Below are positions 28,315 through 64,000 of a stretch of 64,000 nucleotides of DNA, piece after piece (the first letter of the stretch is position 1; each line of letters opens with the position of its first letter). The stretch is taken from positions 4,452 through 68,451 of the forward strand of contig CALCKK010000039.1 in assembly GCA_937966215.1 (NCBI GenBank). Reading direction: 5' to 3'. The stretch comes from an uncultured Collinsella sp. (GTDB lineage: Bacteria > Actinomycetota > Coriobacteriia > Coriobacteriales > Coriobacteriaceae). The notes under the pieces were generated by a model, which saw nothing but the letters and a program-made list of their open reading frames with translations, was not told the DNA's origin and did not search any database. The translations under genes were made by a program, and so were the position numbers.

Positions 28315-28359
28315 GCGCGGCGTTAGTACAATTCCGACGAGAGTTTCAGGAGGTCGAAC

Positions 28360-29022
28360 ATGGCGAGGATACTGGCAGTGGATGATGAACGGGCGATCCT
28401 CGACGCGCTTGCGCGCGTCCTCGGCCGCGACGGCCATGAGGTCGTCAAGGCGGAGGACCCGACGGCGGTCCCGGGGATGGACCTCTCGCGCTTCGACCTC
28501 GTGCTCTGCGACGTCATGATGCCGGGGCTCGACGGCTTCGAGCTCGTGCGGCAGATCCGCCCGGACTTCGACGGCCCCATCGTCTTCCTGACCGCTCGCG
28601 TGGCCGAGGAGGATGCCGTGGCCGCCTACGGCCTGGCCGCCGACGACTACGTCCGCAAGCCCTTCGGGGCCGCGGAGCTGCGCGCCAAGGTCGCGGCCCA
28701 TCTACGCCGTGAGCGCCGGCCGCGCTCGCACGCCCTCTCCTTCGGGGAGGTGCGGATCGACCTCAGGGCGCGCGGCCTCGCCGTGGGCGGCGAGGCCGTG
28801 CCGCTCACGCCCACCGAGTACGCCATCTGCGAGTACCTCGCCCGCCACCCCGGGCAGGTCAAGAGCCGCGCGCAGATACGCGAGGCGGTGCTCGGCTGGG
28901 AGAGCGACGCCGACGACGCGGCCATATCCATGCAGGTCAGTCGCGCCCGGAGGAAACTCTCCGAGGCCGGCGCCGATCCGATCGCGACCGTCTGGGGGAT
29001 GGGGTACAAGTGGCAGCTCTGA
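28360..29022 (+). CDS. OmpR-family response regulator
   Basis: Receiver domain (ILAVDDE, LVLCDVMMPGLDG, KPF) and winged-helix output domain (LTPTEYAICEYL...VWGMGYKW). Confidence 0.92.
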   Translation: MARILAVDDERAILDALARVLGRDGHEVVKAEDPTAVPGMDLSRFDLVLCDVMMPGLDGFELVRQIRPDFDGPIVFLTARVAEEDAVAAYGLAADDYVRKPFGAAELRAKVAAHLRRERRPRSHALSFGEVRIDLRARGLAVGGEAVPLTPTEYAICEYLARHPGQVKSRAQIREAVLGWESDADDAAISMQVSRARRKLSEAGADPIATVWGMGYKWQL

Positions 29023-48297: not shown

Positions 48298-48328
48298 GGT
48301 GCCGCCTTTGACCTTGTGTGCCAATATG

Positions 48329-48356
48329 AAAAAAGGCCCCAACTTGCGTTGGAGCC
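48329..48356 (-). terminator. Terminator downstream of tRNA-Ala copy A
   Basis: ggccccaac-ttgc-gttggagcc is preceded by aaaaaa on the plus strand, a U-run on the minus strand. The copy at 49151-49178 has a perfect stem. Confidence 0.65.
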
Positions 48357-48372
48357 TCATTCAATGCTCGGG

Positions 48373-48445
48373 TGGAGACGAGGGGGATCGAACCCCTGAC
48401 CTCTTGACTGCCAGTCAAGCGCTCTCCCAGCTGAGCTACGCCCCC
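48373..48445 (-). tRNA. tRNA-Ala (anticodon GGC), copy A
   Basis: The reverse complement GGGGGCGTAGCTCAGCTGGGAGAGCGCTTGACTGGCAGTCAAGAGGTCAGGGGTTCGATCCCCCTCGTCTCCA has the G3:U70 Ala identity pair. The anticodon loop is CU-GGC-AG. Confidence 0.92.
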
Positions 48446-48457
48446 GTGCGAAGAAGT

Positions 48458-48486
48458 ACTATACGGGAACTCGGACCACGATGCAA
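48458..48486 (-). promoter_or_regulatory. Candidate sigma70-type promoter of tRNA-Ala (repeated at 49280-49308)
   Basis: On the minus strand: TTGCAT, 17 nt, then TATAGT, with the -10 element ending 12 nt before the tRNA 5' end. Confidence 0.5.
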
Positions 48487-48635
48487 GGACAATTTTGGAA
48501 AAACTTTCCGGGGGCGCGGGCGCCGGAGTCCCGCGGGGCCGCGACGGCGGAGACCGGCGCCCGCGGGGCCGATGCGGGCGGGCGGCGCTGCCGCCGCCCG
48601 CCTATCAGGCTCCACTCCGGTCGCCCCCGGGATCC

Positions 48636-48799
48636 CCGCCACGAAACCGGCCCATCTACTACGTTTGGGCGACATCTCCCGACCATGGCGTCTCGGGCAG
48701 AAATAAAACCGCAGGTAGACGGCCTGCGGTTTTCGCGAAATACGGGGTATGGTCGAGGGGTCGGGGTTAAACGTAGTAGATGGGCCGGTTTCGTGGCGG
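48636..48799. repeat. 31-bp perfect inverted repeat enclosing about 100 bp with an internal terminator-like hairpin
   Basis: ccgccacgaaaccggcccatctactacgttt (48636-48666) pairs with aaacgtagtagatgggccggtttcgtggcgg (48769-48799). The internal hairpin aaccgcagg-tagacgg-cctgcggtt plus tt lies at 48707-48733. Confidence 0.85.
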
Positions 48800-48920
48800 C
48801 GGCATCGCAGGCAGCCGACCGAGGGCGTCCGGAAGTGAGCAAGCAGGCTATTTGCAAGTGAAAACTAATGCCATGAAAAAGAAAACAGGCCAGACATATT
48901 GCCTGACCTGTTGAAAAACC

Positions 48921-48996
48921 TGGTGGGCCCTCCGGGATTCGAACCCAGAACCCAGGGATTATGAGTCCCCTGCGCTAACCGTTGCGCCAAGAGCCC
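48921..48996 (-). tRNA. tRNA with CAT anticodon (elongator Met, or Ile2 if lysidinylated), CCA encoded
   Basis: The reverse complement GGGCTCTTGGCGCAACGGTTAGCGCAGGGGACTCATAATCCCTGGGTTCTGGGTTCGAATCCCGGAGGGCCCACCA has a G1-C72 pair, which argues against an initiator. Confidence 0.85.
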
Positions 48997-49086
48997 TTAT
49001 AAAGTGGCGCTTGCAGTTGGGGTGGCAGAACAGCCTCCAACGCTTTGAACCACGATGTGAAATACTACCATGCGCGCGGCACCCGT

Positions 49087-49119
49087 TCAACGCACGATCT
49101 TGTCGACCAGGAGGATCAT
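49087..49119 (-). pseudogene. Remnant of the ABC-F 5' end (10 codons) inside repeat copy B
   Basis: The minus strand reads ATG ATC CTC CTG GTC GAC AAG ATC GTG CGT TGA ([10 protein letters not shown]). The first 8 codons are identical to the start of the ABC-F gene at 48297. Confidence 0.8.
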
Positions 49120-49326
49120 GCTGCCGCCTTTGAGCTTGTGTGCCTATATGAAAAAAGGCTCCAACTTGCGTTGGAGCCTCATTCAATGCTCGGGTGGAGA
49201 CGAGGGGGATCGAACCCCTGACCTCTTGACTGCCAGTCAAGCGCTCTCCCAGCTGAGCTACGCCCCCGTGCGAAGAAGTACTATACGGGAACTCGGACCA
49301 CGATGCAAGGACAATTTTGGAAAATT
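49095..49326. repeat. Direct repeat copy B (232 bp)
   Basis: See copy A. Beyond 49326 only loose similarity to the region after 48504 remains (for example cgcaggtag...gaaat.c.gggtatgg at 48710 and 49494). Confidence 0.9.
49195..49267 (-). tRNA. tRNA-Ala (anticodon GGC), copy B
   Basis: Sequence identical to copy A at 48373-48445. Confidence 0.92.
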
Positions 49327-49634
49327 TCGCAGTCGCGGCGCGTTCCGCCATCCGCCCAACGGCCGTCTTGCCGGCGCCAGGCCCATTACCGGGGCCGACC
49401 GCGCCCCCGCCGACCCGGCGATTCCAAAACCATGCCGGTTTACGGGGCCAGGCCGGGAACCCCCGAGCATGCCGTAATCGGTAAAATCAAAATCGCAGGT
49501 AGGCGACTTGCGCATTCCGTGAAATGCAGGGTATGGACGGCCGGTCCGGGTCCAGCCCCGTAATCCGGCACAGTTTTGAAATGACATTAATTCACTAACA
49601 GGCAAACTAGGTAGTTCTAGCGCCTTGTCGCCGG

Positions 49635-50792
49635 CTAATTTCCGATTTCCAACCAGTTGCACAAAACATTTGCTCGCAGTCTCGTCTCGGCGCACTTCAT
49701 TGCCTCAGTTTTGACTTTATAGCGAATCCCTAAACGGTCGCAGACACTTCTGACTATGGTGTCTAGCTGCTTTGAATCGTTGAGCATATCGTGAGTCACC
49801 AGGAATACATCGAATCCCATGCTCTGCAACGCAGTCATGCGTTCCGCATCGTGGTCAAGTATTGCACCTGAACCATGAATGACTTCACCTTGGATTTCGA
49901 TAATTGCCCCTTTCATAAGAATCGGATTTACGATCACGATATCGCCGTAGCAGACCTTTTGACCTGCGATGCTTTGCGCCGATATGGAAAGAGGAGTTAA
50001 GTCGTTGGCATAAACGTTCGTGAAGCCAGCGCCGCCAAGACGCCGCGGACGGTTTAGAAGCAAGATTCCTGCAACCTCGAGCGGAGACGCAGCAATGCCG
50101 ATAACCTGCTGAGCGGCATCATAAAACTGCTTTCCCCACATTTGACTTTTGACCTTGTCGGCGAAACGATGCAGGTCGCTCAGCTCGATGAGCGGCTTTC
50201 TCATCCAGAGAGAAGTACCTTTGAGTTTCGTAACCTCTCTTCCATCTTCACGCTTGCTCGTTTGGCTATCATTATCTGGGTCCTTAACGGTTGCGCGGGC
50301 ATAAACTCGTTTCCAAGGAACCTCGTCTTCGCCTTCTCCAAGTTCGAACAGATCCTGCGTGCTGGAATTGCGATTCTCCTCTACCGCCATTTTTAACTGC
50401 ATTTCGGCAGCGGGAGCCGGCTCGAAAACAGAAAACCAACCGCAAAGTTCGTACATAGCCAGTACGAGATCTATTTGGGATACAAAGCGTGTCATAGTAA
50501 ATAACGTGTTAAGCGGATTGGTGACACAAAAGCCTAAATTAGTGTCGATTGTTGTGCCGGCATCCGATGCCCCTTCCCAGCGAATAGTAGAGCGCAATCC
50601 CGAGTGGTGATTACAACAACCTGGCGAAGTAACAGCGATAATTGGGGTCTTGAGGACTTCGGTTACAAAAGGGGCTTGGGATAGAGCTCGCCAGCCGTCT
50701 TCGGAGTTGGGCAGGCGCGGGTAGAGATTGCGCACCTGCGGTGGGCAGCGCCAATAGCGGAATGCAGTGTTTGCGCAGACGATATCGTCCAT
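49635..50792 (-). CDS. Hypothetical protein with C-terminal DUF559/Vsr-like endonuclease-fold domain
   Basis: The C-terminus GAIIEIQGEVIHGSGAILDHDAERMTALQSMGFDVFLVTHDML resembles the DUF559 pattern (hE.DG..H...D..R...L...G..V.R). The N-terminal 250 aa were not recognised. GC content is visibly lower than in the core genes. Confidence 0.45.
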   Translation of the reverse strand: MDDIVCANTAFRYWRCPPQVRNLYPRLPNSEDGWRALSQAPFVTEVLKTPIIAVTSPGCCNHHSGLRSTIRWEGASDAGTTIDTNLGFCVTNPLNTLFTMTRFVSQIDLVLAMYELCGWFSVFEPAPAAEMQLKMAVEENRNSSTQDLFELGEGEDEVPWKRVYARATVKDPDNDSQTSKREDGREVTKLKGTSLWMRKPLIELSDLHRFADKVKSQMWGKQFYDAAQQVIGIAASPLEVAGILLLNRPRRLGGAGFTNVYANDLTPLSISAQSIAGQKVCYGDIVIVNPILMKGAIIEIQGEVIHGSGAILDHDAERMTALQSMGFDVFLVTHDMLNDSKQLDTIVRSVCDRLGIRYKVKTEAMKCAETRLRANVLCNWLEIGN

Positions 50793-51161
50793 TTGCGCCT
50801 CCCCTGGTATCGGCCGTAGGCCGTGCGGATTGCGGGCAAGGTCGATTATCTACTGGCGCATCATGCGGGTAAGTACGGGTAGCTGACCAAACACTGACCA
50901 AAAGCTTGACGCAATCTATTGAAAATCCGCCATAGACATGAACGTGCTGGTACGAGCTGTGAGCCAGTGGTCTCTGTCTCCACAATTGCGCATAGATTGC
51001 GCAGAGAATTCAATGAATGAACGCAGATGCACTTTTCAAAACGTGCGATGACGACAACTAAAGTGAACTGCATAACATACAACGCTTTAGGTAAATTCGG
51101 TTCGATTTGGCATCATATGAAAAAAGGCCAGAGGCTTAACACCTCTGACCTGCGCTTTTGA

Positions 51162-51236
51162 TGGTGGGCGATACAAGATTCGAACTTGTGACCCCATCCG
51201 TGTGAAGGATATGCTCTACCCCTGAGCCAATCGCCC
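51162..51236 (-). tRNA. tRNA-Val (anticodon CAC), CCA encoded
   Basis: The reverse complement is GGGCGATTGGCTCAGGGGTAGAGCATATCCTTCACACGGATGGGGTCACAAGTTCGAATCTTGTATCGCCCACCA. A terminator-like hairpin ggccagagg-cttaaca-cctctgacc lies downstream at 51126-51150. Confidence 0.9.
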
Positions 51237-52184: not shown

Positions 52185-52520
52185 AACTGGAGTGCGGATC
52201 CTTAGATTCTATACGCGCGACAGGTCGCCGGCTCGCCACAAAGCAATTGCGACCTTGCTTTTTGACGAGCTTGTCGCGGGAGTGGCTTTCGAAAACGAGG
52301 TCGCGGATCCAAGCGAAGTGCGGAGTAAAACCAAGGCCCGTCGACCAGACCCCGGTTTTACGCTTTTGCGACATGCGTTTTTTAAATAGAGGATGTGTTG
52401 GGGCTGCTATGGCTGCCATGTAATTTAAAAACAAAAGACCGCTCAACAGATAGGGGTGCCCCGGCATTGGCCGGGGCACCCCGTCTCGGAAGCCATATTG
52501 CTTACCTTTAGATCACTTGA

Positions 52521-53306
52521 CTATTTACGAAAAGCAAGGAAAACCGCCGCTGCGATGCATATGATGCCTATCACGAGCGGAAGCCACGCCTTATCTTCTT
52601 TATCCTTAACAAGAAAAGCCTCAATTGCGGACGCAAGGACCAGGAATCCGCCGATAATCAGCAGATCAAGCGCAACGAAACGGACGGTCGTTATATCGGA
52701 AGAAACCCCTCCGGCATTAACGTTCACAAGCGTGAAGATCGCGGCAAAAATGGCGAAGAGAGCCAGAACATTGCCATAGATACGAGACTCGATGTTGGCG
52801 ACTTCGTTCTTTTTATCCTCGACCTTTTTGAGCTCTCCGGCATAGACGTCGGAATAGTCGGCAAGCCCATTAAAATTGAGCTCATCGGAAAAGGCTCCAT
52901 GGTAAGGATGAGCAACCGTGCCTTCGACGCGCTGGAATGCGACTTGCGCGATACCCTTAGATTTATCAAGGGCAATCGTGTTGCCGCTTACGTTTGTAAC
53001 ACGGTAGAACAGCCGTGTTCCATGACCGGGGAAATATAGCGGCGCATCCAAAGAAAGCCCCTGGCGAATGCGCGAATTGCGTAAAAGAACGCTAGCGGTC
53101 AAATCGTTGGGCAGCGCGATACATTCAACGCAAGAGACAAAAGTCGAGTCTCCAGGGCCAAGTTCGACCTCGGATTGCTTGCTTTCGTTAACGTAGAACC
53201 CGTCAGTGCGCAAGTCATACGTAACCTGTCCGATGTTCGAAGCATCGGCATTGAGCAGCACCTTGCTGTCGATGAGCTCCTGAATCTTAGTATCGCTCAA
53301 GTACAT
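52521..53306 (-). CDS. dCTP deaminase/dUTPase-fold domain fused to a C-terminal multi-TM region
   Basis: The N-terminal 170 aa or so align by eye with Dcd (MYLSDTKIQELI..., ELGPGDSTFVSCVECIALPNDL, LLRNSRIRQGL, FPGHGTRLFYRVTN, IAQVAF). A coiled segment and 3 hydrophobic helices follow (VLALFAIFAAIFTLV, FVALDLLIIGGFLVLASAI, LPLVIGIICIAAAVFLAF). The ATG at 53306 follows aaggaag. Confidence 0.7.
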   Translation of the reverse strand: MYLSDTKIQELIDSKVLLNADASNIGQVTYDLRTDGFYVNESKQSEVELGPGDSTFVSCVECIALPNDLTASVLLRNSRIRQGLSLDAPLYFPGHGTRLFYRVTNVSGNTIALDKSKGIAQVAFQRVEGTVAHPYHGAFSDELNFNGLADYSDVYAGELKKVEDKKNEVANIESRIYGNVLALFAIFAAIFTLVNVNAGGVSSDITTVRFVALDLLIIGGFLVLASAIEAFLVKDKEDKAWLPLVIGIICIAAAVFLAFRK

Positions 53307-53430
53307 ATGAATCACTTCCTTAGGACAACGAGTATAGCACTGAGGTATTGCGCTGGCGGCTGTCCCCAAAGGGGACATAGGGGAAGAAGTTTGAACACAT
53401 ATTTAAGGCTCGGACACGTGGTTGCGATTC

Positions 53431-54309
53431 CTATTCCTCGTCCGGAAGTAGAAACCTGGTATACATCTGAAAGACGGCAAGAAGAAATAGGTCTTCCATG
53501 GTCTCGATTCTCTCGCCATCGAAACCGCCGGGGCACCCGTAGTCCTTATCGTTGGCCTCGTCACCAGAGCCGTAGGTCGCCGCGTAGAATGCAACGGTTA
53601 ACGCGAATCGGCAGGCCTCAATCTCGGAGCTCGATTCGAATTGATATTCATTTTTCAGATAGGAAATGGGGGCGAAGGAAGCGACCCTGGATTCGAAGGC
53701 CTCGGAAAGGACCTTACGGATAAGGTAATCGTACCCCGGGGAACAGCTATCAGGGGGCAGAAAGGAAGAGTCCAGGCACTCAGAAAGAAGGTCAACCCGA
53801 GGTTCTGGCAGCCTCTCCCCCGCATACCTTTCGAGGCTGCGAAGCACGTATTTCCCATCATCATAAAGAACGGGTTCATCTTCTGGGAAGCGGTCACGGA
53901 GGGCGGCTTCGACTGCGGTGATGCAACGGACGAACAGGTCATCCTCTCCCCTGACCCGCAAGTCAAGATTGCAGTATTTAAGAATTAGATTCTGTACCTC
54001 CGGCACGAGACAACAAAAGTTCCGGTACATCTCACGTGAATAATAAAAAAGGTCATTGTGCATGGCGGCGACAGCGCAAAGCGGAATTAATCCTCTGTCT
54101 GAGTAATACTTCGAGATAAACTCGATTGCCTGCGCCTTATTCCCTTCGGCGTGTCTGCGTTCGTCTCTTTCGTCCTGGCGACGCTCGAATTCCTCCATGC
54201 GCTTGCTCTGGCAACACTGTTTCTTGCCAATGATGGCTGTCACAATTAAAGAGATAAACGCGCATATTAATTCAGCCAATTCGTTCCACTTCACAAGAAA
54301 CCCCCACAA
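53431..54309 (-). CDS. Membrane-anchored hypothetical protein
   Basis: N-terminal TM helix (LAELICAFISLIVTAIIG), a charged helix (EEFERRQDERDERRH) and a 230-aa domain with no recognisable motif. It lies directly upstream of the Dcd-TM gene on the same strand. Confidence 0.5.
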   Translation of the reverse strand: MWGFLVKWNELAELICAFISLIVTAIIGKKQCCQSKRMEEFERRQDERDERRHAEGNKAQAIEFISKYYSDRGLIPLCAVAAMHNDLFYYSREMYRNFCCLVPEVQNLILKYCNLDLRVRGEDDLFVRCITAVEAALRDRFPEDEPVLYDDGKYVLRSLERYAGERLPEPRVDLLSECLDSSFLPPDSCSPGYDYLIRKVLSEAFESRVASFAPISYLKNEYQFESSSEIEACRFALTVAFYAATYGSGDEANDKDYGCPGGFDGERIETMEDLFLLAVFQMYTRFLLPDEE

Positions 54310-54735
54310 TACTTAATGGTGTTGCAATTCTATATACCAAGCAATTCTACGCATGGGACGTAGGCCTCGACCGCAACAGCCGGATATACGCAAAAGAGGG
54401 GTTAGACCATACTGCTTGCACTATAAATGAATTCAGCGGATCTAAATCCGCCTTGCGCTCGACCCTGATTGTTGCATTGCGGTGCTCTGTGTACTGCCGA
54501 TATTGCGCTTGGGCACCGGAGCCGACATAAGTCCCGGTGCCCTTTTTGCTGTTTGTGATCTGCACCACCTTATTGTTGAATTCTTTTCTCCCGTATATCA
54601 ACCCGGGTCTCGTTGCCGCGATTCAGCCCATGGACGCGTCCGTATGGCCTCTGCCTTCGATAATTGGGCGCCTATAAGCAAACAAGCAAATAGCAATGCC
54701 TTGTGGATGTCCCTTTCTTCCAAATGGCAGCTATC

Positions 54736-55875
54736 TCAACAACGACATGCGGCAGCTAGAAGCATTGTACCAAGCAGGAAAAGCGTCACGGAAGCTGCGA
54801 CCCAGTTGTTGTCGCCGGTCTTGGGGAGTAACGCAGTTGTCGCGGTGGCGGTTGCGGTCTTGGGCTTATAGGACGTGGACACCGTGGTCTTGGTTACTGT
54901 CGTTGTTGTCTTGGTTGTCGCGGCCGCGGGCTTCAGCGAGGGATTTGCCGTGGGTACCGTGGTGGGCTCTCCGGTAGCGGGGTTGGCATTGGCGGGAGAC
55001 TTGTCCGTGCTATCGCCCAGCACGTCGTGTCCATCGGTCTCCCCCGCCGGAGGCGTGGCCACATCGGGCTCAACCACCACATGCGGTGCCACCGCACCGG
55101 AGGCGTCCACCACGCCGCTAGCACCAAAAGCCCCACCAGCAGGCGTCACAAACCGCGCAGATACAAGTGACCCGCCCGTGCTCGCAAGGCCGCCGTCGGC
55201 ACCGGTCGCATCGAGCCACGAGGCGTCGACGGAAAGCCGACAGCCGGCCGCACCGTCGCCAAGGCCCGCATCCTGCAGACACACGCCGTAGGCGCGCACG
55301 CCCGCTCCGGACCCGGCGCCCGCGGCGACGAAGCGCCCGCCGCCGCGCACGGCCATATCGCCTGCGATCACGCCGGCGACCGCCTCGTCCGTAATATCGG
55401 CCCCATCCGCCCGCGCATCGACGGTGCATCCGTCCACCACGAGCGCCTGCGAGACGTGGATCCCGCACTGTGAGCCCGTCGCCGTCAGGGTCCCGGTACC
55501 GCGAAGCGTCAGGTTGCCCCACACCTCCATGCCGCACAGCGTGATGTCCGCATCGGGCGCATGCGACTCCGTCACGGAGTTTTGCCCGGCAAGCGTCAGC
55601 ACCAGGTCGCCTTCGGCGCCGATGGCCTCCCCCGCGTAGCCGTTAAGCTCCAGGTGGTCGGCATCGGTCCAGGCCCAGCCGGGGCCCGACGCGCCCGGCT
55701 CGTAGTACGTCTCGCCCGCGATGATGAGGCTCTCCGCGCCCGCGGCATAAGAAGGCCCGCCCAGCAAAACGCATAGGCAGGCCATGGCAGCGATCGCGAT
55801 GTGATGACGGCTGGTGTGGGACTCGGCAGCAAACATACCCGCTCCGATCTTCGCAGGAGCCAATAGAATGTGCAC
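54736..55875 (-). CDS. LPXTG cell-wall-anchored surface protein
   Basis: Signal peptide (IAIAAMACLCVLLGGPSYAAGA), a Gly/Ala/Asp-rich beta-like region, a Thr/Lys/Pro stalk and a C-terminal LPKTG motif with a hydrophobic helix and tail. The start is possibly Met14. Confidence 0.8.
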   Translation of the reverse strand: MHILLAPAKIGAGMFAAESHTSRHHIAIAAMACLCVLLGGPSYAAGAESLIIAGETYYEPGASGPGWAWTDADHLELNGYAGEAIGAEGDLVLTLAGQNSVTESHAPDADITLCGMEVWGNLTLRGTGTLTATGSQCGIHVSQALVVDGCTVDARADGADITDEAVAGVIAGDMAVRGGGRFVAAGAGSGAGVRAYGVCLQDAGLGDGAAGCRLSVDASWLDATGADGGLASTGGSLVSARFVTPAGGAFGASGVVDASGAVAPHVVVEPDVATPPAGETDGHDVLGDSTDKSPANANPATGEPTTVPTANPSLKPAAATTKTTTTVTKTTVSTSYKPKTATATATTALLPKTGDNNWVAASVTLFLLGTMLLAAACRC

Positions 55876-56077
55876 CAGAAAATGCCCTGGTAGCAGCAGT
55901 TATTAGTTTAGCGAGATCAGACGATGAGCAAAGAATAAAACCGTGATCAACTCCCAAAATTAGGTGTAAATCGTTTTGCCAGTCGGCGAAAGGAAGAATC
56001 GCCTCGAGTCGATTGGCGTTCATAAATTCCTAAGTCTGTAACAAAGGACCCTTACAGGTTGAAATCGTAAGAATAGC

Positions 56078-57871
56078 CTACTTTGACAATTGCTTAAAAT
56101 CCTGAGCTGATGATTCCGCAGCCTCAACCATTGTTAACCAATCGTCTAATTTTGGAGGACGAACGGTCCATAAAGTATCTCGGCCCTTCAGCACATCTTC
56201 ATTTGGTGGAACCATTGCACATATAGCTTTGTTTCCGTACTGATCATCTGGGCTTAAGACTAGCTTACGTTCAGAATCTTTTATTTGGTCTGCTGAGCAT
56301 TCTGAAGAACCAATTACTAGAGTAGTCTGTGCAAAACCGCAGAATGCCTCTTTGCTTCCAAGCTTAACAGCTATAGGCTTAATCCAGCGCGCTAAAGAGG
56401 GGTATTCAAAGTTTGGGACTTCATCCCCTTCTAGATTAAACCCATGTGATTCCCAACTATATACAATCGTTTCGCCATCGAGCAGTCTTGCTGCATCTTT
56501 AATATTTGCGACTTCTCCTTTAGTGATTTTAAAATAATCAGGGAAAGGCATTTCGCCGTCCGCAGCCCTGTTAATAGTTTCTAACGCAACCGCAAGACCG
56601 TATATGGCATTTACTTCGGCAACCACATCATCCCTGAGGCCGAGATAAAAATAGAGAGCACTCGTGCCATCGATTCGAAGCTCCACTTTTTCATCTTCGG
56701 CTTCGCTTAAGAATCGATAAGTTCTTACTACATCTCGAGAACGCTTATTGAGTAATTTGTTAAATGAAAACTCATAGTTAATCGTTCCGCCGGACTGGCT
56801 GCCGATCCATTTAAAGCTCAATCGAAAGGTTTCCGTCGCGTCATGGGCAGAAAAGAAAGCTCCCTTCGTTCCATGAGTGGCCTTATCAACTATTAGATGT
56901 AGTTCACCACAGCCTTCCCAGAACAACGAAGCCGACCTTATGCAAGTTGATGTGGGCAGATCAAGGGTCTTAATGATTCCCTTTCGAATACCATCGCAGG
57001 AACGTCCAACGGGCAATTGGTAGGCCTGATCAATCACTTCCGCCGGCAACGAAGTGAAGGGCATACCATACTCGATAAAATTTTTGGCCTGTTCCTTCTC
57101 ATCGTCAGTCCCTGCAGTGATTTTCAGTGAAAACCTTAATGGATGCAGCATTGAAGCAATTGGCGTCTTTTCAATTACGTCGATTGCGATTCGACCTGCT
57201 CCCGGGGTTACTAGAATTTGGGACATAACAACGCCAGGGGCACATGCGCAAAAATCATCGCGTTTGTCGTATTCTGAGAGCACGTGAACTGAATATGCAT
57301 AGTAAGGGTCCAGTTTATCAAGATGGGAACATAGATCGCGCAGCCTATTTTCGAGAATGGCTGGATCGCTGCAGTCTGGAAGATTGGCCATGGAGAGCAG
57401 TTTCGCAGCATACTCAGAGACCTCTTCTTTTCCATTTGAAAAGTAATAATCAATTACTTCTGGGTGTTTGGACGCCCAGCCATCAACTCTTGAAAGGCCA
57501 TCCCAGACGAATTTTGTACCAGAAGTTTCAACCAGCTCCTTAGCCCATCTTAGATTCTCATTTGTGGGATCTAATGGCATAACAAGATGCCAGCTATTTA
57601 TTTTTACATGCAAATCGACTGTGGTTGCCGATAATTCCTGCCACGAATTTTCAATCTGAGCTTTCTGGCCGTTTTTTAGATTTTCAGCAAATTTCTTAAT
57701 TTGATATATGTCGACCGTTTCAGCATCAAGGTAAACGATAAGGTCAATTCCTCCATCGCCCCTAGAAGGTCGAATTTTAATGGCGTCTCGCTCTTCAAGA
57801 GAAATAAACGTCGCAAGAACTGACTCGATATCCTCACCTGAATATCGAGTCCAAGGGATACGTCCAGTCAT
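56078..57871 (-). CDS. Large protein with N-terminal PD-(D/E)xK (Mrr-like) nuclease motif and an unrecognised C-terminal 450 aa
   Basis: The N-terminus WTRYSGEDIESVLATFISL...RPSRGDGGIDLIVY...VDIYQIKKF matches the Mrr-cat pattern (GDGGID ... Q-x-K). No P-loop was found. It lies 41 nt downstream of the RT gene on the same strand in AT-rich DNA. Confidence 0.6.
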   Translation of the reverse strand: MTGRIPWTRYSGEDIESVLATFISLEERDAIKIRPSRGDGGIDLIVYLDAETVDIYQIKKFAENLKNGQKAQIENSWQELSATTVDLHVKINSWHLVMPLDPTNENLRWAKELVETSGTKFVWDGLSRVDGWASKHPEVIDYYFSNGKEEVSEYAAKLLSMANLPDCSDPAILENRLRDLCSHLDKLDPYYAYSVHVLSEYDKRDDFCACAPGVVMSQILVTPGAGRIAIDVIEKTPIASMLHPLRFSLKITAGTDDEKEQAKNFIEYGMPFTSLPAEVIDQAYQLPVGRSCDGIRKGIIKTLDLPTSTCIRSASLFWEGCGELHLIVDKATHGTKGAFFSAHDATETFRLSFKWIGSQSGGTINYEFSFNKLLNKRSRDVVRTYRFLSEAEDEKVELRIDGTSALYFYLGLRDDVVAEVNAIYGLAVALETINRAADGEMPFPDYFKITKGEVANIKDAARLLDGETIVYSWESHGFNLEGDEVPNFEYPSLARWIKPIAVKLGSKEAFCGFAQTTLVIGSSECSADQIKDSERKLVLSPDDQYGNKAICAMVPPNEDVLKGRDTLWTVRPPKLDDWLTMVEAAESSAQDFKQLSK

Positions 57872-57911
57872 CGCTGCACCTCAATAGAAGCTAAATAAAA
57901 AAATCCAATCA

Positions 57912-59459
57912 CTAATTTAAATATTCGGGTTTAATGAACTTGATTCCCCTCTTTTTAATGGCCCTCCACTCATCAGACGGTAACCACTCTTTTGATCGAA
58001 TATGATAGAGAAAAAGCCACATCTCTTCAAATTCACGCCCTTCTATTGGGAATTCCTTAGCATGCTTTGTAAGACGATCAAGCAAATATCCATCGCCAAA
58101 ATGCTTGGCGTAAAGATAGACGAATAAGTATAAAAGACAGTCATTAGCCCTTTTGATATCTTCAAAATCGGGCATATCAACCTTAAAATCGAACTTAATT
58201 GCGTAGTAAAGGCCGTAGCAAACCGAAAGGTGATCACCGTGATTAAGACAATCAGAGATAATAACCTTTGAGAGACACTCAATATAATCTTTGTCCATAC
58301 TCAAAGGCTCAATTATTGCTTTCTCGAATGACGGCAGCAAATAAGGAAATACGATTGCAAGGTGCATAGCATAGTCCCGAAAATAGGCTTTTGCCGAAGG
58401 CTTTAGTGAGCGCGATGCGAGCATTTTGAACGCGTATAGCAGTATTGAGGCATTATTCTGGTAAGAAGGAAGAAGACTGGTCGCGTATTCCAAAAAAGAT
58501 GACACATCTTTGTAATCAAGCGGGTCCGATTTATTAGGTTCATTGCGCCTTAATGAATTTACCCAGCCATTAGAAAGCGCTATGGGTAATTCTAGTATTT
58601 CAGTTTTCTTCTGATTCAGTGTTAGACGAAACTTGGACAGCTCTTCCTGCAACGAGATGATGAACTGCTCGGCCTCGTATCGCGATGCGACATAACAATT
58701 GTAGTCATCGATATTTCGAATAAATCTATAGCCTTTGTTAAATAAACTAGCATCGATAACTGTGAGAATTAATTCTGAGACAACATTGGAAGCGTGTGGA
58801 CCGATAAGTAATCCGTGGGTTTCGCCGTCGCACGCCTTTTGAAGTAGTCCGTCAATTTCGTTCGCCCAACCGCCCCGACGGGAACTTCTATTTTGCTTTG
58901 CGTTATCCCTTCCCATAATCGCCCAAGGCAAAGAATGCGTGTATATACTCGGAAAACAAGTGGAGATGTCGCATTTCACGAGGTATTTTTTACCAATAAG
59001 AATAGTTGGTTCAGGGTTAGGATCAGTCATCCAGTTTGAATAGTTCATTTGGAATATTGCTTGCGAATCGGGAATCACACGAGGATGAATCCTGCTAACT
59101 GCATAAGGCTGCGGTAATGTGTATTTTTGAACGTGACGGACTATATCGCCCCAATTGTCGGCTAAACCGCGGACGAGTCGCTCGTAGGTGAAGGGGGTTG
59201 GTATGCCGAATTTTCGATATTGTCCATTGCACCGAATGTAATTAAATCTAATCCACTCTGAGCGTGAATCGTTGCTTGCCATTTTGCGATTATTGCAATA
59301 CGTAACAAATTGTTCTGCCGAAAAAATCGGCGGTAGTTTGTCGGCAAACCATCCGGCAAGCATTAGTCCGTTATAAACAGCATCTTCGGATAACTCTTGC
59401 CAATATGCCCAGTAAGGCTTGGAAGGAGCAAAGAGCTTGTCACATAATTGAGATTCCAT
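57912..59459 (-). CDS. Reverse transcriptase of the UG/Abi (defence-associated) type, helical C-terminal half
   Basis: The RT palm motifs occur in order: LVKCDISTCFPSIYTHSLPWA (A), GLLIGPHASNVVSELIL (B), FIRNIDDYNCYV (C, with DD) and LTLNQKKTEIL (D/E). The C-terminal 200 aa or so are helical and contain an R-x4-H match (FRDYAMH). There is no maturase or endonuclease domain. Confidence 0.8.
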   Translation of the reverse strand: MESQLCDKLFAPSKPYWAYWQELSEDAVYNGLMLAGWFADKLPPIFSAEQFVTYCNNRKMASNDSRSEWIRFNYIRCNGQYRKFGIPTPFTYERLVRGLADNWGDIVRHVQKYTLPQPYAVSRIHPRVIPDSQAIFQMNYSNWMTDPNPEPTILIGKKYLVKCDISTCFPSIYTHSLPWAIMGRDNAKQNRSSRRGGWANEIDGLLQKACDGETHGLLIGPHASNVVSELILTVIDASLFNKGYRFIRNIDDYNCYVASRYEAEQFIISLQEELSKFRLTLNQKKTEILELPIALSNGWVNSLRRNEPNKSDPLDYKDVSSFLEYATSLLPSYQNNASILLYAFKMLASRSLKPSAKAYFRDYAMHLAIVFPYLLPSFEKAIIEPLSMDKDYIECLSKVIISDCLNHGDHLSVCYGLYYAIKFDFKVDMPDFEDIKRANDCLLYLFVYLYAKHFGDGYLLDRLTKHAKEFPIEGREFEEMWLFLYHIRSKEWLPSDEWRAIKKRGIKFIKPEYLN

Positions 59460-59979
59460 TGCCGACCTTAAGATAGGCTACTTAATGAACAATAGTTTAA
59501 TCAAATAGCTGCATAGATATTTATGAAATACTTCAATTTAGAAGTGTGAATCACATTGAAATTGCTGTAATTAATTTAAAGGATTTCTATGTGCCTGCAG
59601 TCAACCTATTAATACCGATCCGATTGCTTATACTAAATGCTGGCTCGGGTCTACGTAACTAATACGAGCCAGTTATATTGCTCCTATTATATTGAGGTCC
59701 GAGAGAAGCGGGGCCATCGCACTCCCCAGATGTCGCCAAACAAGTCCTTCGCGTACGCCCTGTCTCTGCTACGAGCTTGTCCGTTTAAGTAGGCTTTATC
59801 GTGCTCCCGTGACGCATATCCTTAATGTAATTACTTCTATCCTAAAAGTCCTCCAACGGCAGGCGAAGGCCATCATATGAGCCACTAGAAACGGCCAAAC
59901 TGCGTCACGAGATAGCTTGCTTGGACAATCGGTAGATACGGAGTGTTGCCACTAATCGACATGTAATCTATCCATTCTC

Positions 59980-60639
59980 TCAGCGCCATATAGGACCTGC
60001 TAGTTGCATTTGGCGCTGAATTGCACCTCTCTTGTTTAGCTGGCATAGAGTTTTGTATGATGCGGCAAGAGTGTTTTCTCTTTCAAAGAGATCTTGCCGT
60101 TGATCGGGCTCATCTAACCTTTCAGAAGCCTGTTCAAGCGTCCATTGATATTCCCTTGCATTCTTGAGCATCTTATTAAATAGAATCTGATACTGATACA
60201 TTGAAAACAAAAGGGATTGATAATCTTCTATGAATTCGGCAATTGCCTTTCCACTCTTTCCCTTGAAGCAAAATCTCGCCTCCATGGCGAGCGATCTCAT
60301 TTCATCAAGCTTTAAATGCAATTTAAGTTGAAGGTCGGCATCTAACACCTTATTAATTGAGGCTGAGATTGATTGCAGGTACGTGGTGTTAGTCAGCCAT
60401 ACAAATAGTAGGTCGATTGCCATTTGCGGTTCGTCGTCATGTTCCAAGTTCTTCGCGTTTTTTGCGTAAACGCTCATGAGATTATCGACGGTTATCCATA
60501 TATTTAAACGTCGATTGAATAGAGACTGTTTATTGCTGAGACGAGCCTGGTAACAAGAAATGAGCAACGCGATGATTGCCACAATCGCTGAGATGTACTC
60601 AGGTAAATTTGTTAGGTTCATTGTCTCCTCCGCAGCCAA
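59980..60639 (-). CDS. Single-pass membrane protein with helical cytoplasmic domain, unknown function
   Basis: TM helix YISAIVAIIALLISCY near the N-terminus, with the remaining 180 aa predicted helical. It lies in AT-rich DNA between the SMODS operon and the RT module. Confidence 0.5.
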   Translation of the reverse strand: MAAEETMNLTNLPEYISAIVAIIALLISCYQARLSNKQSLFNRRLNIWITVDNLMSVYAKNAKNLEHDDEPQMAIDLLFVWLTNTTYLQSISASINKVLDADLQLKLHLKLDEMRSLAMEARFCFKGKSGKAIAEFIEDYQSLLFSMYQYQILFNKMLKNAREYQWTLEQASERLDEPDQRQDLFERENTLAASYKTLCQLNKRGAIQRQMQLAGPIWR

Positions 60640-60814
60640 AAATCAATTGGCAATACTACAATTATCGATCTGCATTCAGGATTCTCTGACAATAGGAATT
60701 ACGTTACTGAGGTCATTGATCGTAGTAGAATATCCGATTGATTTGAAAGTCGTTCCACATCGTAGCTTATGCTGTTAGTTGATTGGTTATATGGGCTGTT
60801 TAGGGGATAATTCC

Positions 60815-61366
60815 CTAATTGATATCCTTTCCTTTAAACGACGTGGATAGCATCATCAGAAGAACGTCGTTGACCATTCGTCCCCTGAAGTTGCAAAGCG
60901 CGGTAAATGAAATCATACTAAGCAGTTTCATGCCCTGCTCATCGATCCTTCCTTTTTCAGGAGGGCAGTAGACGATTAATCCGCACTGGGGCTTTTTACC
61001 TCGGACAACAGCATTGAATTCTTCGTTGCTTAGATATTCATGAACAATAATCATTAAAAGCGCTGATTGAGCTTCATCAAGGTGTTTGTTGGTGACATGC
61101 TGAATATTTCTTGTTTTAATAAGGCCGGAATTGACCAAATCTTTTCGAATGTCATTAAAATCATCAAGTCCTGCGATAATAGCGATTTTCTTTGCGAATA
61201 ACGCTAGCCCGAATCTGATCAGGGCTTGAGTAATGCCAGCAAAAGATCCCGCGGCAACTACCAACAGTGCGATGAACCCAAATACTGAGCAGATAGCAGT
61301 TATGCAGTCACGGGCGCTATAAAAGATTTGTAGGAGCTGTAGTATTATTTCCAACAATTTATCCAT
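60815..61366 (-). CDS. 2TM protein with small alpha/beta C-terminal domain (candidate effector of the SMODS enzyme)
   Basis: Two hydrophobic helices (ITAICSVFGFIALLVVAAGSFAGI and LIRFGLALFAKKIAIIAGL) precede a domain of about 110 aa with alternating strand/helix character. The start lies 10 nt after the SMODS gene stop. Confidence 0.55.
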   Translation of the reverse strand: MDKLLEIILQLLQIFYSARDCITAICSVFGFIALLVVAAGSFAGITQALIRFGLALFAKKIAIIAGLDDFNDIRKDLVNSGLIKTRNIQHVTNKHLDEAQSALLMIIVHEYLSNEEFNAVVRGKKPQCGLIVYCPPEKGRIDEQGMKLLSMISFTALCNFRGRMVNDVLLMMLSTSFKGKDIN

Positions 61367-61375
61367 ATCAATTAT

Positions 61376-62698
61376 CTACTCCACATTAATGAAAAACGGA
61401 CGGGTCCATCGTACGCAATAGCCTTTACGCACAACAAAGCACTGCACGATATGTTTTCCGGTATAGGCTGTTTCTTCTCGTCTTGAAGTTTTCCCTTCGT
61501 TGGGAGCTTCAAAGCCCCCACGCTGACAGCATCGCATAGCCTCTTCACCGGTATTGGTGATCTGCCATCTTACACGCCCGTCTTTAATTGGGCTGTATGT
61601 GACTTTATATATCACTGAGGACCCTTTCGGAACCGCCGGCCCATCATTTGGAAGATTGATTTGTTTGCCCGAAGGAAGAGTGGCAGTTGCAGTGATGGTT
61701 GCATTTGGTTTTTGAGATTGCAAGGGATACTTCAGCTTTTGTCTATGGGTAACGGACAACGCGCGTTCCTGTGCAATTCGCCTCGTTCCAGCTGCGTAAG
61801 ATCTCGATTCATTCCCTGCTGGGAAATTAATGCCAAGAATGGTTCTCCAAATATCGTTGCCAGTGCCTTTTTCTGCAAGAAGATCAAGTTGTTCGATCAG
61901 TCTATTTGAAAACTCAAGGAAGTCGTTGTGTTTGTACTTTTCCGCTAGGTTATTTTCGCAAAATGCGGGATCTTCGATAAATGGAGTGTTGCCAGAACTT
62001 AAATCTTCTGAGTACGCTTCTGACAAATTGGCCATTGTTTGCATTACACGCTCTTCAATCGTGAGGTGCGGTTCTGGTAAATTATCAGCAATCATTTTCT
62101 CAAGAGTAATTCCCTTTGGATATTTGACATTCGATGGACAGTTTTCTCTTCGCCACCATTTAAAAATTTTCACCAAAGGCTTATATGCATTTTCATACCC
62201 TTGATTAACTTCTGTTGTCCAAGAAATATGTTTCTTCGGATCAGTTCGCTTCCAAGTGCCTTCCTTAGATGATCCAATATTAAGAAAACCGTTTTCATCT
62301 CTGACCAAGGGCACAACATCAAGATGGAAACTTGCCATATCTATACCGACAGAATGATTTTGAATAGTCGTTTTTTGGTAACAGCTGCGTAGTTTGAGGG
62401 CCTTTTCAAGCTCATTCAATACAAAAGTCGGAGAATCGTTTGTTGAACGACTAGTTTCGATGACAACGTCAATATCGCAGCAATCCGAATTCTTTTTTGG
62501 ACGAATGAACGTTTGCTTAGCGTAAGATCCTGACAAATAGCTGTGAACATAAATATGTTTATAGCTCTCACAAGTTTTCAAGTGATTCCTAAGATTCTGG
62601 TGAAGTCTGCTTGCTTCATCGATAGTAGATTTACTTGGGTTGATATCTTTTAGAAAAGACTCGAAGTCGGTACTGTTTGCCACAATTCTCCAATTCAA
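61376..62698 (-). CDS. SMODS-family nucleotidyltransferase fused to an AGS-C sensor domain
   Basis: Pol-beta NTase signature LSGSYAKQTFIRPKKNSDCCDIDVVI (GS ... DxD) plus a third acidic residue in HLDVVPL. The C-terminus VRWQITNTGEEAMRCCQRGGFEAP...ETAYTGKHIVQCFVVRKGYCV resembles the AGS-C pattern (assigned from memory). Confidence 0.75.
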   Translation of the reverse strand: MNWRIVANSTDFESFLKDINPSKSTIDEASRLHQNLRNHLKTCESYKHIYVHSYLSGSYAKQTFIRPKKNSDCCDIDVVIETSRSTNDSPTFVLNELEKALKLRSCYQKTTIQNHSVGIDMASFHLDVVPLVRDENGFLNIGSSKEGTWKRTDPKKHISWTTEVNQGYENAYKPLVKIFKWWRRENCPSNVKYPKGITLEKMIADNLPEPHLTIEERVMQTMANLSEAYSEDLSSGNTPFIEDPAFCENNLAEKYKHNDFLEFSNRLIEQLDLLAEKGTGNDIWRTILGINFPAGNESRSYAAGTRRIAQERALSVTHRQKLKYPLQSQKPNATITATATLPSGKQINLPNDGPAVPKGSSVIYKVTYSPIKDGRVRWQITNTGEEAMRCCQRGGFEAPNEGKTSRREETAYTGKHIVQCFVVRKGYCVRWTRPFFINVE

Positions 62699-62819
62699 AC
62701 GTATGTTCTATTATAAGTAATAATATTCGAGTAGATTAATTTATGTGACATCAATTTAAATACTGATTCGAATCTTAGATTGATAGTTTCTGCCAGGGTG
62801 TTTTTGGTTTTCCATTTAT

Positions 62820-62865
62820 GAAATCGACCCCTGAGGATCTGTTTTACTCCTCAAGGGTCGATTTC
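62820..62865. other. Long hairpin in AT-rich spacer at the island edge
   Basis: gaaatcgacccctgagga-(10 nt)-tcctcaagggtcgatttc is an 18-bp stem with one mismatch. Confidence 0.6.
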
Positions 62866-63310
62866 AATTTATATATCAGTTTAGAAAACAGTTGATGATT
62901 CAGAGACCGGAAGGCCCCCGAAGATCGTGTCGAAAATGTGAGCCTGATTCTAAATCAAATTATGTAGTCATCATGACCCTAGCATAGAGTCTTTTATTTG
63001 GTTTGCTTAACCAAGTACCAAATAGCGAAGACACATTCAAGTGCTTACGGAGGGTTACGTTGGTTCAAAAGTTGGCTTAGTCAATTTTTGAACCAACGTA
63101 AGTCAAAACTCATGGAGAGAGTTTACGTGGAAGTAGCTAAATTTCGGCTTCCGTTATTCGCAAGTTGCTGCTTGCGTTGTAGTTAAATCAATGAAAGATA
63201 AGCATGCAATTGAGATGCTGACCGCTATCATCCAGACGAATGATAGTTACCACTCCCCCATGCTTCAGATTACGGCATGAATAATGCGCCGAGTGTATAT
63301 CTAAGCGCGG

Positions 63311-64000
63311 CTATCTCGCTACGCCTTCACCACAGGTGTCGCTCCCGAGCTTGATAGGCGACAGTTCGATGTGGTCTTTACTTGCGTCGAATTGACCCAG
63401 CAGGCCAGCTATGGCGGCGGATACACTATCATCGATGTAAAGACCGCATTTGCCTCCACGCTCAGCTGCTCGCGCGAACTCGACGAGCTCGTTTCGAATT
63501 CCCTCGCCGTCAAGCTGGAAGAAATACCGCTTGTTTTGAGAAGGATCCTCTTTGCGTACCTCGAAGTAGTCTGTTTTCCACCAGGGAGCGGGTACGTAAA
63601 TGTAGCCATCCGTGCCGGAAACCACAAGCGACCCCTCAGATTTAGCCGCCTTGCCGAAAACCGCCTCGCCGTAGCCATCCTCGAATGCCAGTCGGATCTC
63701 ACCAAACGCGTCAAAGCCAGCGTAACCTTCAAGGTCGGCCCTTACAAAATCGGCTGATTGATAATTAGTTCCGAGTAGCTGCAAGATGGGCAGCAACGCT
63801 GCTGGACCCCAGGCTTTGGAGCTCGACCACTTGCCCTCAACGCTCGAGATGTCCTCACTGCCAAGATCAACAAGGCTGGTGCATACAGCGCGCACCGACA
63901 GAACTCGTCCAATGTGACCACTCTTGGCGAGCAGAAGCAGTCGATGGTAGGCCGTTGAATACGCCGTCTTGATCGCGTCGGCCAAAACGAGGCCCTTTGA
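63311..64000 (-). CDS. Gfo/Idh/MocA-family oxidoreductase, C-terminal part (5' end outside window)
   Basis: The frame stays open to the window edge upstream of the tracked TTG. AYSTAYHRLLLLAKSGHIGRVLSVRAV is typical of the junction into the Gfo/Idh/MocA C-terminal domain. Confidence 0.6.
   Translation of the reverse strand, partial: SKGLVLADAIKTAYSTAYHRLLLLAKSGHIGRVLSVRAVCTSLVDLGSEDISSVEGKWSSSKAWGPAALLPILQLLGTNYQSADFVRADLEGYAGFDAFGEIRLAFEDGYGEAVFGKAAKSEGSLVVSGTDGYIYVPAPWWKTDYFEVRKEDPSQNKRYFFQLDGEGIRNELVEFARAAERGGKCGLYIDDSVSAAIAGLLGQFDASKDHIELSPIKLGSDTCGEGVAR

Follow-up and report, generated by a model that had tools for sequence, protein, structure and literature searches.

What kind of element is the AT-rich segment that lies in an otherwise GC-rich stretch of an uncultured Collinsella sp., and do its five genes form one system? 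The stretch that was analysed (the window) comprises 64,000 nucleotides of contig CALCKK010000039.1, and the segment is situated between the gene of an LPXTG surface protein and the last gene of a polysaccharide locus. A preliminary description had proposed a horizontally acquired defence island that extended over 55900-63300 and had only defence-like content. Comparison with about 200 related loci (labelled L001 upward) bore out the foreign origin and the defence genes, but not the idea of a single acquired unit: positions 55997-62934 are very probably the current cargo of a Collinsella chromosomal defence hotspot, foreign in composition, whose four modules (a gene pair of CBASS, an anti-phage signalling system that is based on cyclic oligonucleotides; a DRT4 reverse transcriptase; the nuclease candidate E597; and the membrane protein C219) come and go independently. 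To call the content exclusively defence-like is too strong: known defence families account for three of the five genes, whereas C219 has no defence-family match and E597 is a candidate only.

Composition and boundaries of the segment

Along the window in 500-nt steps, the GC content dropped from 0.60-0.72 (55000-55999) to 0.36-0.47 (55750-63249) and returned to 0.55 past 63250, with values of 0.52-0.74 outside the AT-rich segment. The segment 55997-62934 had a GC content of 0.420, relative to 0.608 for positions 1-49267 of the window, and the bottom three of all 7-kb windows in the 64 kb began at 56001-56501 (GC 0.419-0.423; median of all windows, 0.588). The drop previously described between the LPXTG gene and the gene at 63311 (0.42 vs 0.61) was thus confirmed by sliding-window GC. 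Codon usage was foreign as well. The GC content of third codon positions (GC3) was 0.383-0.444 in the five island genes, relative to 0.559-0.870 (mean 0.730) in 19 long open reading frames (ORFs) elsewhere in the window that we picked as host genes, and these ranges did not overlap (0.42 vs 0.73; Mann-Whitney p = 2.4e-5).

The ORF list agreed that all five ORFs of the segment are on the minus strand, and none of the five proteins matched a housekeeping family in Pfam or NCBIfam, as had been proposed. The protein families named in the preliminary description were also recovered: the reverse transcriptase (RT) matched RVT_1 and Drt4, the nucleotidyltransferase matched Pfam SMODS, and the PD-(D/E)xK N-terminus contained the motif GDGGID...YQxKK and an Avs4/restriction-endonuclease fold, while the two small membrane proteins had N-terminal hydrophobic helices, as read from their sequences. 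PADLOC, recommended as a check, identified a CBASS cyclase (3.6e-79), a 1TM effector (1.1e-32) and Drt4 (3.9e-186).

The exact junctions were obtained by comparison with related genomes, and they moved both of the boundaries first given. On the left, blastn homology on the LPXTG side ended at 55994-56000 in many loci (L079, L048, L029, L074, L034, L091-L096, L100 and L102-L107), which placed the junction at ~55996/55997. On the right, homology of the GFO_IDH_MocA (GFO) flank ended at 62935 in L101-L106, six of the seven metagenome contigs that share the GFO gene (protein 97-99% identical), which placed the junction at ~62934/62935; L101-L107 were 95-97% identical to the window over 64000-62935. 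The right junction was taken from these metagenome contigs because close relatives have the neighbouring polysaccharide genes replaced too. As homology ends at both flanks, the cargo corresponds to 55997-62934. The gene from 63311 that had been called an oxidoreductase encodes the C-terminal portion of a protein of 462 aa with CTP_transf_like and GFO_IDH_MocA domains, from a locus of the polysaccharide/teichoic-acid type. It is the last gene of a LicD/aminotransferase/LicD/Polysacc_synt locus (GC 0.55-0.61) that continues beyond the window and was read in L001-L010.

The slot in related strains

The region between these junctions was occupied by different genes in other Collinsella strains, while its flanks were conserved. 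LPXTG-gene homologues of 57-100% identity adjoined the slot in many Collinsella loci, and the flanking ABC-F protein, which assigns the window to the C. aerofaciens group of Collinsella, showed 96-99% identity in most of the Collinsella loci compared. Strains whose neighbouring products (the DUF3825 protein, the dCTP-deaminase-like DCD-TM protein and a 287-aa protein) were 100% identical carried quite different cargo at the slot, together with another adjacent polysaccharide gene set. Among the approximately nine GTDB species representatives that reach into the slot, island-type sequence was present in L013 only. The alternative cargo genes are listed in Table 1; the cargo protein of L079 and L100 is, judging from its sequence, evidently a further member of the PDC-S49 family. 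Every cargo that was measured was AT-rich (GC 0.42-0.52). Conserved flanks with differing, mostly defence-related cargo across related genomes are what a hotspot consists of, and the finding that would have spoken against foreign origin, a segment conserved in all relatives with native codon usage, was not made, as the cargo differs and its GC3 is foreign.

An E. coli pan-genome study (PMC10121019) reportedly maps chromosomal defence hotspots that are flanked by conserved core genes and whose cargo can be exchanged. The Collinsella slot resembles these in that its junctions are fixed, its cargo is AT-rich, many different defence cargos occupy it and, in this variant, dedicated mobility genes are lacking. 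Unlike the E. coli hotspots, it adjoins a polysaccharide locus that varies between strains and, in close relatives, changes together with the cargo, and it has a second slot just across the LPXTG gene.

At the right edge of the slot, an 83-121-aa fragment of the C-terminal domain of a UDP-glucose/GDP-mannose dehydrogenase (UDPG_MGDP_dh_C) recurred in L181-L196 and L092-L100, strains whose polysaccharide loci are of other types, and it marks the polysaccharide-side edge there. Repeated recombination appears to have left it behind as the remnant of a gene.

Table 1. Features of the window and alternative cargo found at the slot in related loci
Feature	Position or locus	Strand	Remarks
Cargo segment of hotspot	55997..62934	.	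6938 bp, GC 0.420, bounded by blastn homology breaks
Left flank, LPXTG (LPKTGD) surface-protein gene	54736..55875	-	GC 0.68, conserved slot anchor
Right flank	62935..64000	-	376-bp conserved spacer and 3' part of 462-aa CTP_transf_like/GFO_IDH_MocA gene, stop 63311
E597	56078..57871	-	597 aa, N-terminal Mrr/Avs4-like PD-(D/E)xK nuclease and unmatched C-terminal part
DRT4 (UG15) defence reverse transcriptase	57912..59459	-	515 aa, RVT_1, PADLOC Drt4 3.9e-186 full length
C219	59980..60639	-	213-219-aa single-pass membrane protein, otherwise all-helical; likely start 60621
CBASS effector	60815..61366	-	183 aa, N-terminal transmembrane segment(s) and small cytosolic domain; PADLOC
CBASS CD-NTase with C-terminal AGS-C (Ig-like) domain	61376..62698	-	440-aa ORF
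Hairpin I3, inside island, upstream of cyclase gene	62819..62866	.	19-nt arms, 10-nt loop, 95% complementary
Second variable slot, across LPXTG gene	52230..54735	-	GC ~0.50
dCTP-deaminase-like protein, C-terminal transmembrane region	52521..53378	-	Second slot
Unknown 287-292-aa protein	53431..54309	-	Second slot
PDC-M12A/B	L029 (C. aerofaciens ATCC 25986 record)		Slot cargo, 1.5e-144 and 8.3e-68
PDC-S49	L105		Slot cargo, 604 aa, 1e-25
YobI-ATPase/Tmn-like	L102		Slot cargo, 1206 aa, 1.1e-85 and 2.8e-35
YobI-ATPase/Tmn-like	L091		Slot cargo, 817 aa, Pfam only
nSTAND3 and DUF2971	L092-L096, L100		Slot cargo, nSTAND3 protein 813 aa
Gabija-like GajA/GajB pair (AAA_15/AAA_21/OLD-TOPRIM and UvrD helicase)	L181-L188		Slot cargo, Pfam domains only
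Exo_endo_phos protein and two unknown proteins	L107		Slot cargo

Independent assortment of the modules

Rather than one acquired unit, the island is a mosaic, and its four modules assort independently. In L107 the CBASS pair and C219 were kept (window 64000-59604, 96.5%), and DRT4 and E597 were replaced. C219 occurred alone, without CBASS, DRT4 or E597, in L102, L103, L106 and L189-L196, with homology from 60685-60646 down to 59951-59838. In L197, DRT4 (81%) and E597 (86%) lay behind an AAA_15/AAA_21 protein and a D12-class methyltransferase, and in L181-L188 E597 (84% identical) lay behind the Gabija-like genes, the window homology starting at 58004. Upstream of the E597 homologue in L181, L182 and L184, at ~7869-7960, a 93-nt remnant of the DRT4 3' end was retained (corresponding to window 58004-57912), a recombination scar which indicates that DRT4 was replaced in the Gabija-type islands.

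Because DRT4 and E597 are neighbours, they might be thought to form a two-gene system in which the RT, or its DNA product, controls the downstream nuclease. In two diverged variants, that of the window and that of L197, they lie next to each other in the same orientation with 39-40 nt between them, and in L107 both were replaced together; E597 followed DRT4 in both DRT4-bearing island variants, and DRT4 was never seen without E597 (L198 ends at the RT). Yet E597 is intact behind the Gabija-like genes, where only the DRT4 scar is left, and so does not need DRT4; an RT neighbour was absent from all five contexts in which distant E597 homologues were inspected, and E. coli DRT4 is a single-gene system by experiment (PMC12783706). 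We consider such a pairing improbable.

A second possibility is that the segment is a degraded mobile element (the remnant of a prophage, integrative conjugative element or transposon) that carries defence cargo. Its GC content is foreign, and tRNA genes are found 5-8 kb away, at 48371-51236. Transposase fragments or insertion sequences occur in this region elsewhere (rve_3 in L182, rve in L198 and, in our reading, a transposase-like ORF in L109), as do phage-like genes beside the tRNA cluster in L096 and L099. Against this, no integrase, transposase, structural or replication family was found among the five island proteins by family profile scans (including Pfam, NCBIfam and PHROGs), and a search of the island ends yielded no direct or inverted repeat pairing them, only short chance-like matches; both results agree with the earlier reading of the segment, in which no integrase, transposase or flanking repeat had been visible. 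Moreover, the junctions are common to many unrelated cargos, which fits a hotspot better than the attachment site of one element. We therefore regard a degraded element as quite unlikely. The DRT4 scar, the shared breakpoints and the absent mobility genes together suggest that cassettes are exchanged by recombination and not inserted site-specifically, and the missing integrase is most likely explained by homologous recombination, both within the conserved flanks and from module to module.

It was also conceivable that all five genes make up one integrated system, for example a CBASS whose signal would act on the RT and the nuclease and also on a second membrane effector. The genes share a strand and have short spacers, and the exact DRT4 protein was indexed in 466 human-gut assembly blocks, with an identical five-gene context in all ten of the places shown. 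These contigs are ~100% identical, however, and the unchanged recurrence is due to clonal relatedness. The modules are found separately in related strains, gaps of 175 and 520 nt lie between modules, and C219 has its own upstream region, which makes one integrated system very improbable.

Finally, that the low GC is native, with ordinary Collinsella genes skewed by function or expression level, is scarcely credible: C219 homologues are named only from Collinsella or Coriobacteriaceae among the matches listed, and E597 variants of 83-88% identity are very common in Collinsella, but the island GC3 falls short of the comparison-set mean by 0.29 with the ranges apart, close relatives lack the segment or have it replaced, and the closest DRT4 relatives outside the Collinsella type are at most 47% identical and bear the names of other lineages.

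The CBASS cyclase and effector

The cyclase gene begins at 62683 according to gene callers (435 aa), as called in L001-L010. Its product matched Pfam SMODS (1.7e-35) and AGS_C (4.1e-20) and the PADLOC cyclase model, and its closest solved structure was Bacillus cereus CdnD (9sa4, 2.1e-42). Relative to 9sa4, the SGSY and DIDVV motifs are conserved and HLDVVP aligns with MDVVP, so that the GS...DxD...D catalytic motif is complete. The effector gene starts 9 nt past the cyclase stop. Its product had no Pfam or NCBIfam family, but matched the PADLOC model 'Effector 1TM' (residues 21-178 on profile positions 15-172 of 174) and 'C3a59 TM' (3.7e-30), and it co-travelled with the cyclase wherever seen (the window type and L107).

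Type I CBASS, in the classification of Millman et al. 2020, reportedly consists of a CD-NTase and an effector only. As no Cap2/Cap3 or HORMA/TRIP13 family match was obtained among the five island proteins (Pfam, PADLOC and NCBIfam), the cyclase and effector are assigned to type I. They share with this type the GS/DxD motif of the SMODS cyclase, the AGS-C domain, a transmembrane effector gene directly downstream, and the lack of Cap2/Cap3 and HORMA/TRIP13. They differ from known type I systems in their host, a high-GC gut actinobacterium, in the distance of the cyclase from the closest solved enzyme (only 2e-42 to B. cereus CdnD), and from characterised Cap proteins in that the effector matches PADLOC '1TM' effector models only. 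Ig-like AGS-C fusions occur in ~40% of type I operons, where they have been linked to phage specificity, and were not reported in CD-NTase clade D (bioRxiv 10.1101/2023.05.21.541620). The product of B. cereus CdnD is cA3 (PMC13424991). The clade and the nucleotide product of the island cyclase are not assignable from these data, since its best solved match is of clade D, yet AGS-C is reported absent there.

The DRT4 reverse transcriptase

Over residues 14-513, the RT scored 617.9 bits with the PADLOC Drt4 model, the best among all RT models, and it matched the E. coli DRT4 structures (21ou and others) at 1.1e-49. In E. coli DRT4, the priming residue Tyr125 and the catalytic residues D240/D241 have been defined experimentally (PMC12783706). 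Y140 of the island RT aligns with Tyr125, and D251/D252 align with D240/D241; all three residues were invariant in 20 relatives. The island RT could be aligned with E. coli DRT4 (PDB 21ou, 9vdo, 9ltm) over 41-445 and shares with it the priming Tyr, the catalytic Asp-Asp, a C-terminal helical (alpha-Rep) region and the lack of a thumb-type domain, and it may also behave as a single gene in the hotspot, where the modules beside it vary. Unlike the E. coli protein, it has RNIDD for YIDD, falls below the NCBIfam equivalog cut-off and has a shorter flexible C-terminal tail (515 vs 540 aa).

Replacement of the Y of YIDD by N, H or T was the rule in the 20 aligned DRT4 relatives and is the norm of the RT's subclade. 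Beyond close Collinsella-type variants, the nearest relatives were at most 47% identical and bore Bacteroidales, Clostridium, Blautia and Helicobacteraceae names. The island RT is best read as belonging to a divergent subclade of the DRT4/UG15 family.

The nuclease candidate E597

The N-terminal nuclease domain of E597 extends over approximately residues 1-120 by profile and to ~170 by fold, and the remaining 430-480 residues are beta-rich. When 1.84 billion cluster representatives (50% clustering) were scanned in full with HMMER, the family comprised 895 representatives at E<=1e-3, 164 of them at <=1e-30; members are mostly 560-610 aa long and alignable end to end, and named sources include Collinsella, Eggerthella, Streptomyces and Kitasatospora. 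In an alignment of 61 sequences, G38, G41, D43, Q57 and K59 were among the invariant residues, and the motif RPSxGDGGIDV...VYQVKKF is the PD-(D/E)xK/Mrr signature. Within these 61 members, matches were obtained to the LmuA N-terminus (46), to Avs2 (7) and weakly to Pfam Mrr_cat (7), and no NCBIfam model was matched by any member; E597 itself had a weak PADLOC LmuA match over its N-terminal ~100 residues (1.3e-4).

Structural comparison gave the same picture. The AlphaFold2 model of E597 was of high confidence (pLDDT 88, pTM 0.73) and was matched by Foldseek at its N-terminus only, by Avs4 (8dgf_B, prob 1.00 over 168 columns) and also by EcoT38I, N.BspD6I, Card1 and viral restriction endonucleases; the D...QxK signature and these N-terminal matches identify a PD-(D/E)xK (Mrr-like) fold. 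No Foldseek match reached E<=1e-3, the beta-rich remainder had no credible match in the PDB or viral structure libraries, and neither sequence nor profile searches gave a match in the PDB. Recurrent Foldseek hits to a sliding-clamp/PCNA fold at prob 0.02-0.04 were discounted as evidence.

The nuclease domains of Avs4, Avs2 and LmuA thus share with E597 an N-terminal fold and the D...QxK signature. Assignment to Lamassu was rejected, there being no SMC/LmuB gene in the island and the LmuA match being confined to the N-terminus, and so was assignment to Avs, as E597 has no P-loop/STAND family match and only its nuclease domain resembles Avs4 and Avs2. Lacking the STAND/P-loop ATPase module of Avs and the LmuB/SMC partner gene of Lamassu, E597 belongs to neither, and the rest of the protein, unlike that of Avs or Lamassu proteins, has no sequence or fold match.

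Four of the five contexts of distant homologues (29-31% identity) contained defence or mobility genes: one in Eggerthella lay between integrases and an Abi_2 gene, another beside IS110 transposases, a third within an nSTAND3/GmrSD/KwaB island, and a fourth adjoined an integrative conjugative element that carries genes for FtsK, RepSA and an integrase. By analogy, E597 may be regarded as a stand-alone 'sensor plus Mrr nuclease' defence candidate. That it founds an undescribed single-gene family of anti-phage nucleases, in which an Mrr nuclease of the Avs4/LmuA type would be controlled by a confidently modelled, ATPase-free C-terminal part of ~430-480 aa in place of a STAND or SMC ATPase, is a tentative proposal, to which we give less than even weight.

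The membrane protein C219

C219 had no match in Pfam, PADLOC, NCBIfam or PHROGs, and its AlphaFold2 model was of low confidence (pLDDT 53). It had 366 homologues at E<=0.001, and the 120 matches listed were 84-96% identical to it; Collinsella and Coriobacteriaceae were the only sources named among these. Conservation was strong, the mean column identity of an alignment being 82%. A role as a CBASS accessory or second effector was ruled out by the presence of C219 in islands that lack CBASS, so that it is not a component of that system. In these CBASS-less islands, C219 keeps its own upstream region, with homology from 60685-60646.

A shortened homologue (164 aa, 50% identical) was observed at 11588-12082 of L109, a more distant gut contig that is probably from another Coriobacteriaceae lineage (GFO homologue 60% identical). 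It lies ~6 kb downstream of the GFO gene, and adjoins a transposase-like ORF and a possible DUF2971-like gene. C219 thus has been associated with the slot for long.

In the 520-nt gap between C219 and DRT4 (59460-59979), the part 59604-59951 moved with the C219 module in other loci, and ~59472-59603 was shared by neither variant locus compared (L107 and L197). The gap contained no Rfam family and no convincing ORF.

Surroundings of the slot

The homology of L013, L048, L029 and L072 broke at ~52229-52321 and again at ~54735-54740, and these breaks bound the second variable slot, which means that the variable region exceeds the AT-rich part. In other strains this slot carried HEPN_AbiU2, MNT/Polbeta, Fic, Abi_2 or AAA_21 genes. 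The protein at 52521-53378 (261-285 aa) has an N-terminal dCTP-deaminase/dUTPase-like region (Pfam DCD 7.8e-9; TIGR02274 1.4e-13, below cut-off) and a hydrophobic, apparently multi-pass C-terminal membrane region. It had no match among the PADLOC models, and is possibly a nucleotide-depleting defence variant.

Hairpin I3, upstream of the cyclase gene, is a possible insulator or terminator. The conserved spacer that runs from the GFO stop to the right junction contains a near-perfect palindrome (I1, 63055-63101; 23-nt arms, 1-nt gap), probably the terminator of the polysaccharide operon or possibly a recombination-prone hairpin. The Rfam model mir-548 was matched there on both strands below threshold (34 bits vs a gathering score of 90) and was dismissed as a chance match to a hairpin. 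The Rfam scan found no RNA family in the island, and scans for promoters and terminators gave no more matches than in shuffled sequence.

Two stretches of the window, 26000-30000 and 55000-55750 (the latter within the LPXTG gene), had a GC content of 0.72-0.74, relative to the typical 0.55-0.65. The tRNA cluster (Ala-GGC, Met, Ala-GGC) in 48301-49342 holds a duplicated unit of ~200 nt, its copies 48301-48526 and 49095-49324 cross-matching one and the same sequence in relatives. In L096 and L099, HTH, MuF_C and a 488-aa gene took the place of the ABC-F side near the tRNA cluster, an arrangement suggestive of a phage or integrative conjugative element having integrated near the cluster in these strains.

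Discussion

Taken as the cargo of a defence hotspot, this is a real but ordinary defence island: its CBASS and DRT4 are of known kinds and bring no new mechanism, and the E597 family is possibly its only new element. Several observations weigh against this reading. No truly empty site was found among the related loci, so that replacement was seen but insertion itself was never observed, and no donor lineage was identified. The RT scored 360.8 bits with the NCBIfam equivalog NF041749, the cut-off of which is 450, and it has NIDD (RNIDD) where E. coli DRT4 reads YIDD. There is no characterised homologue of E597, and the fifth of its distant contexts, in Streptomyces, is a neighbourhood not obviously related to defence. 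C219 is tied to defence by location and AT-rich composition only, and its very frequent recurrence in the slot could mean that it is semi-resident there and serves some other function.

The analysis itself shows the composition of the segment, its junctions, the alternative cargo, the assortment of the modules, their family membership and their conserved catalytic residues. We infer the biochemical activities and any anti-phage phenotype in Collinsella from these families and homologues, and in such a model the segment would most likely provide layered, mainly abortive-infection immunity from independent modules. Upon infection, the CD-NTase-AGS-C enzyme would, as in its family, make a cyclic oligonucleotide, perhaps gated by AGS-C, and this would activate the 183-aa membrane effector, leading to membrane damage and aborted infection. 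Hexameric E. coli DRT4 primes itself on a Tyr and makes untemplated random single-stranded DNA (ssDNA), which host exonucleases normally clear until a phage ssDNA-binding protein shields it and it accumulates to toxic amounts (PMC12783706). The island RT, by homology, would prime on its own Y140 as a hexamer and produce random ssDNA that host exonucleases remove and a phage ssDNA-binding protein would protect up to toxic levels. The C-terminal part of E597 might act as a sensor or regulator that releases DNA cleavage by the nuclease on infection. The cassettes themselves would be swapped by homologous recombination through the conserved flanks and the joints between modules, for which no mobility gene would be needed.

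A limited literature search found no paper on the phage defences of Collinsella, a common human-gut actinobacterium in which the slot described here is precisely bounded. Type I CBASS, DRT4, Gabija-like, PDC-M12, PDC-S49, Tmn-like and nSTAND3 cargos substitute for each other in it, and, as the slot adjoins a strain-variable cell-wall polysaccharide locus, receptor variation and intracellular immunity could move together. The slot can be mined for new defence genes, and the E597 family is a concrete, testable candidate.

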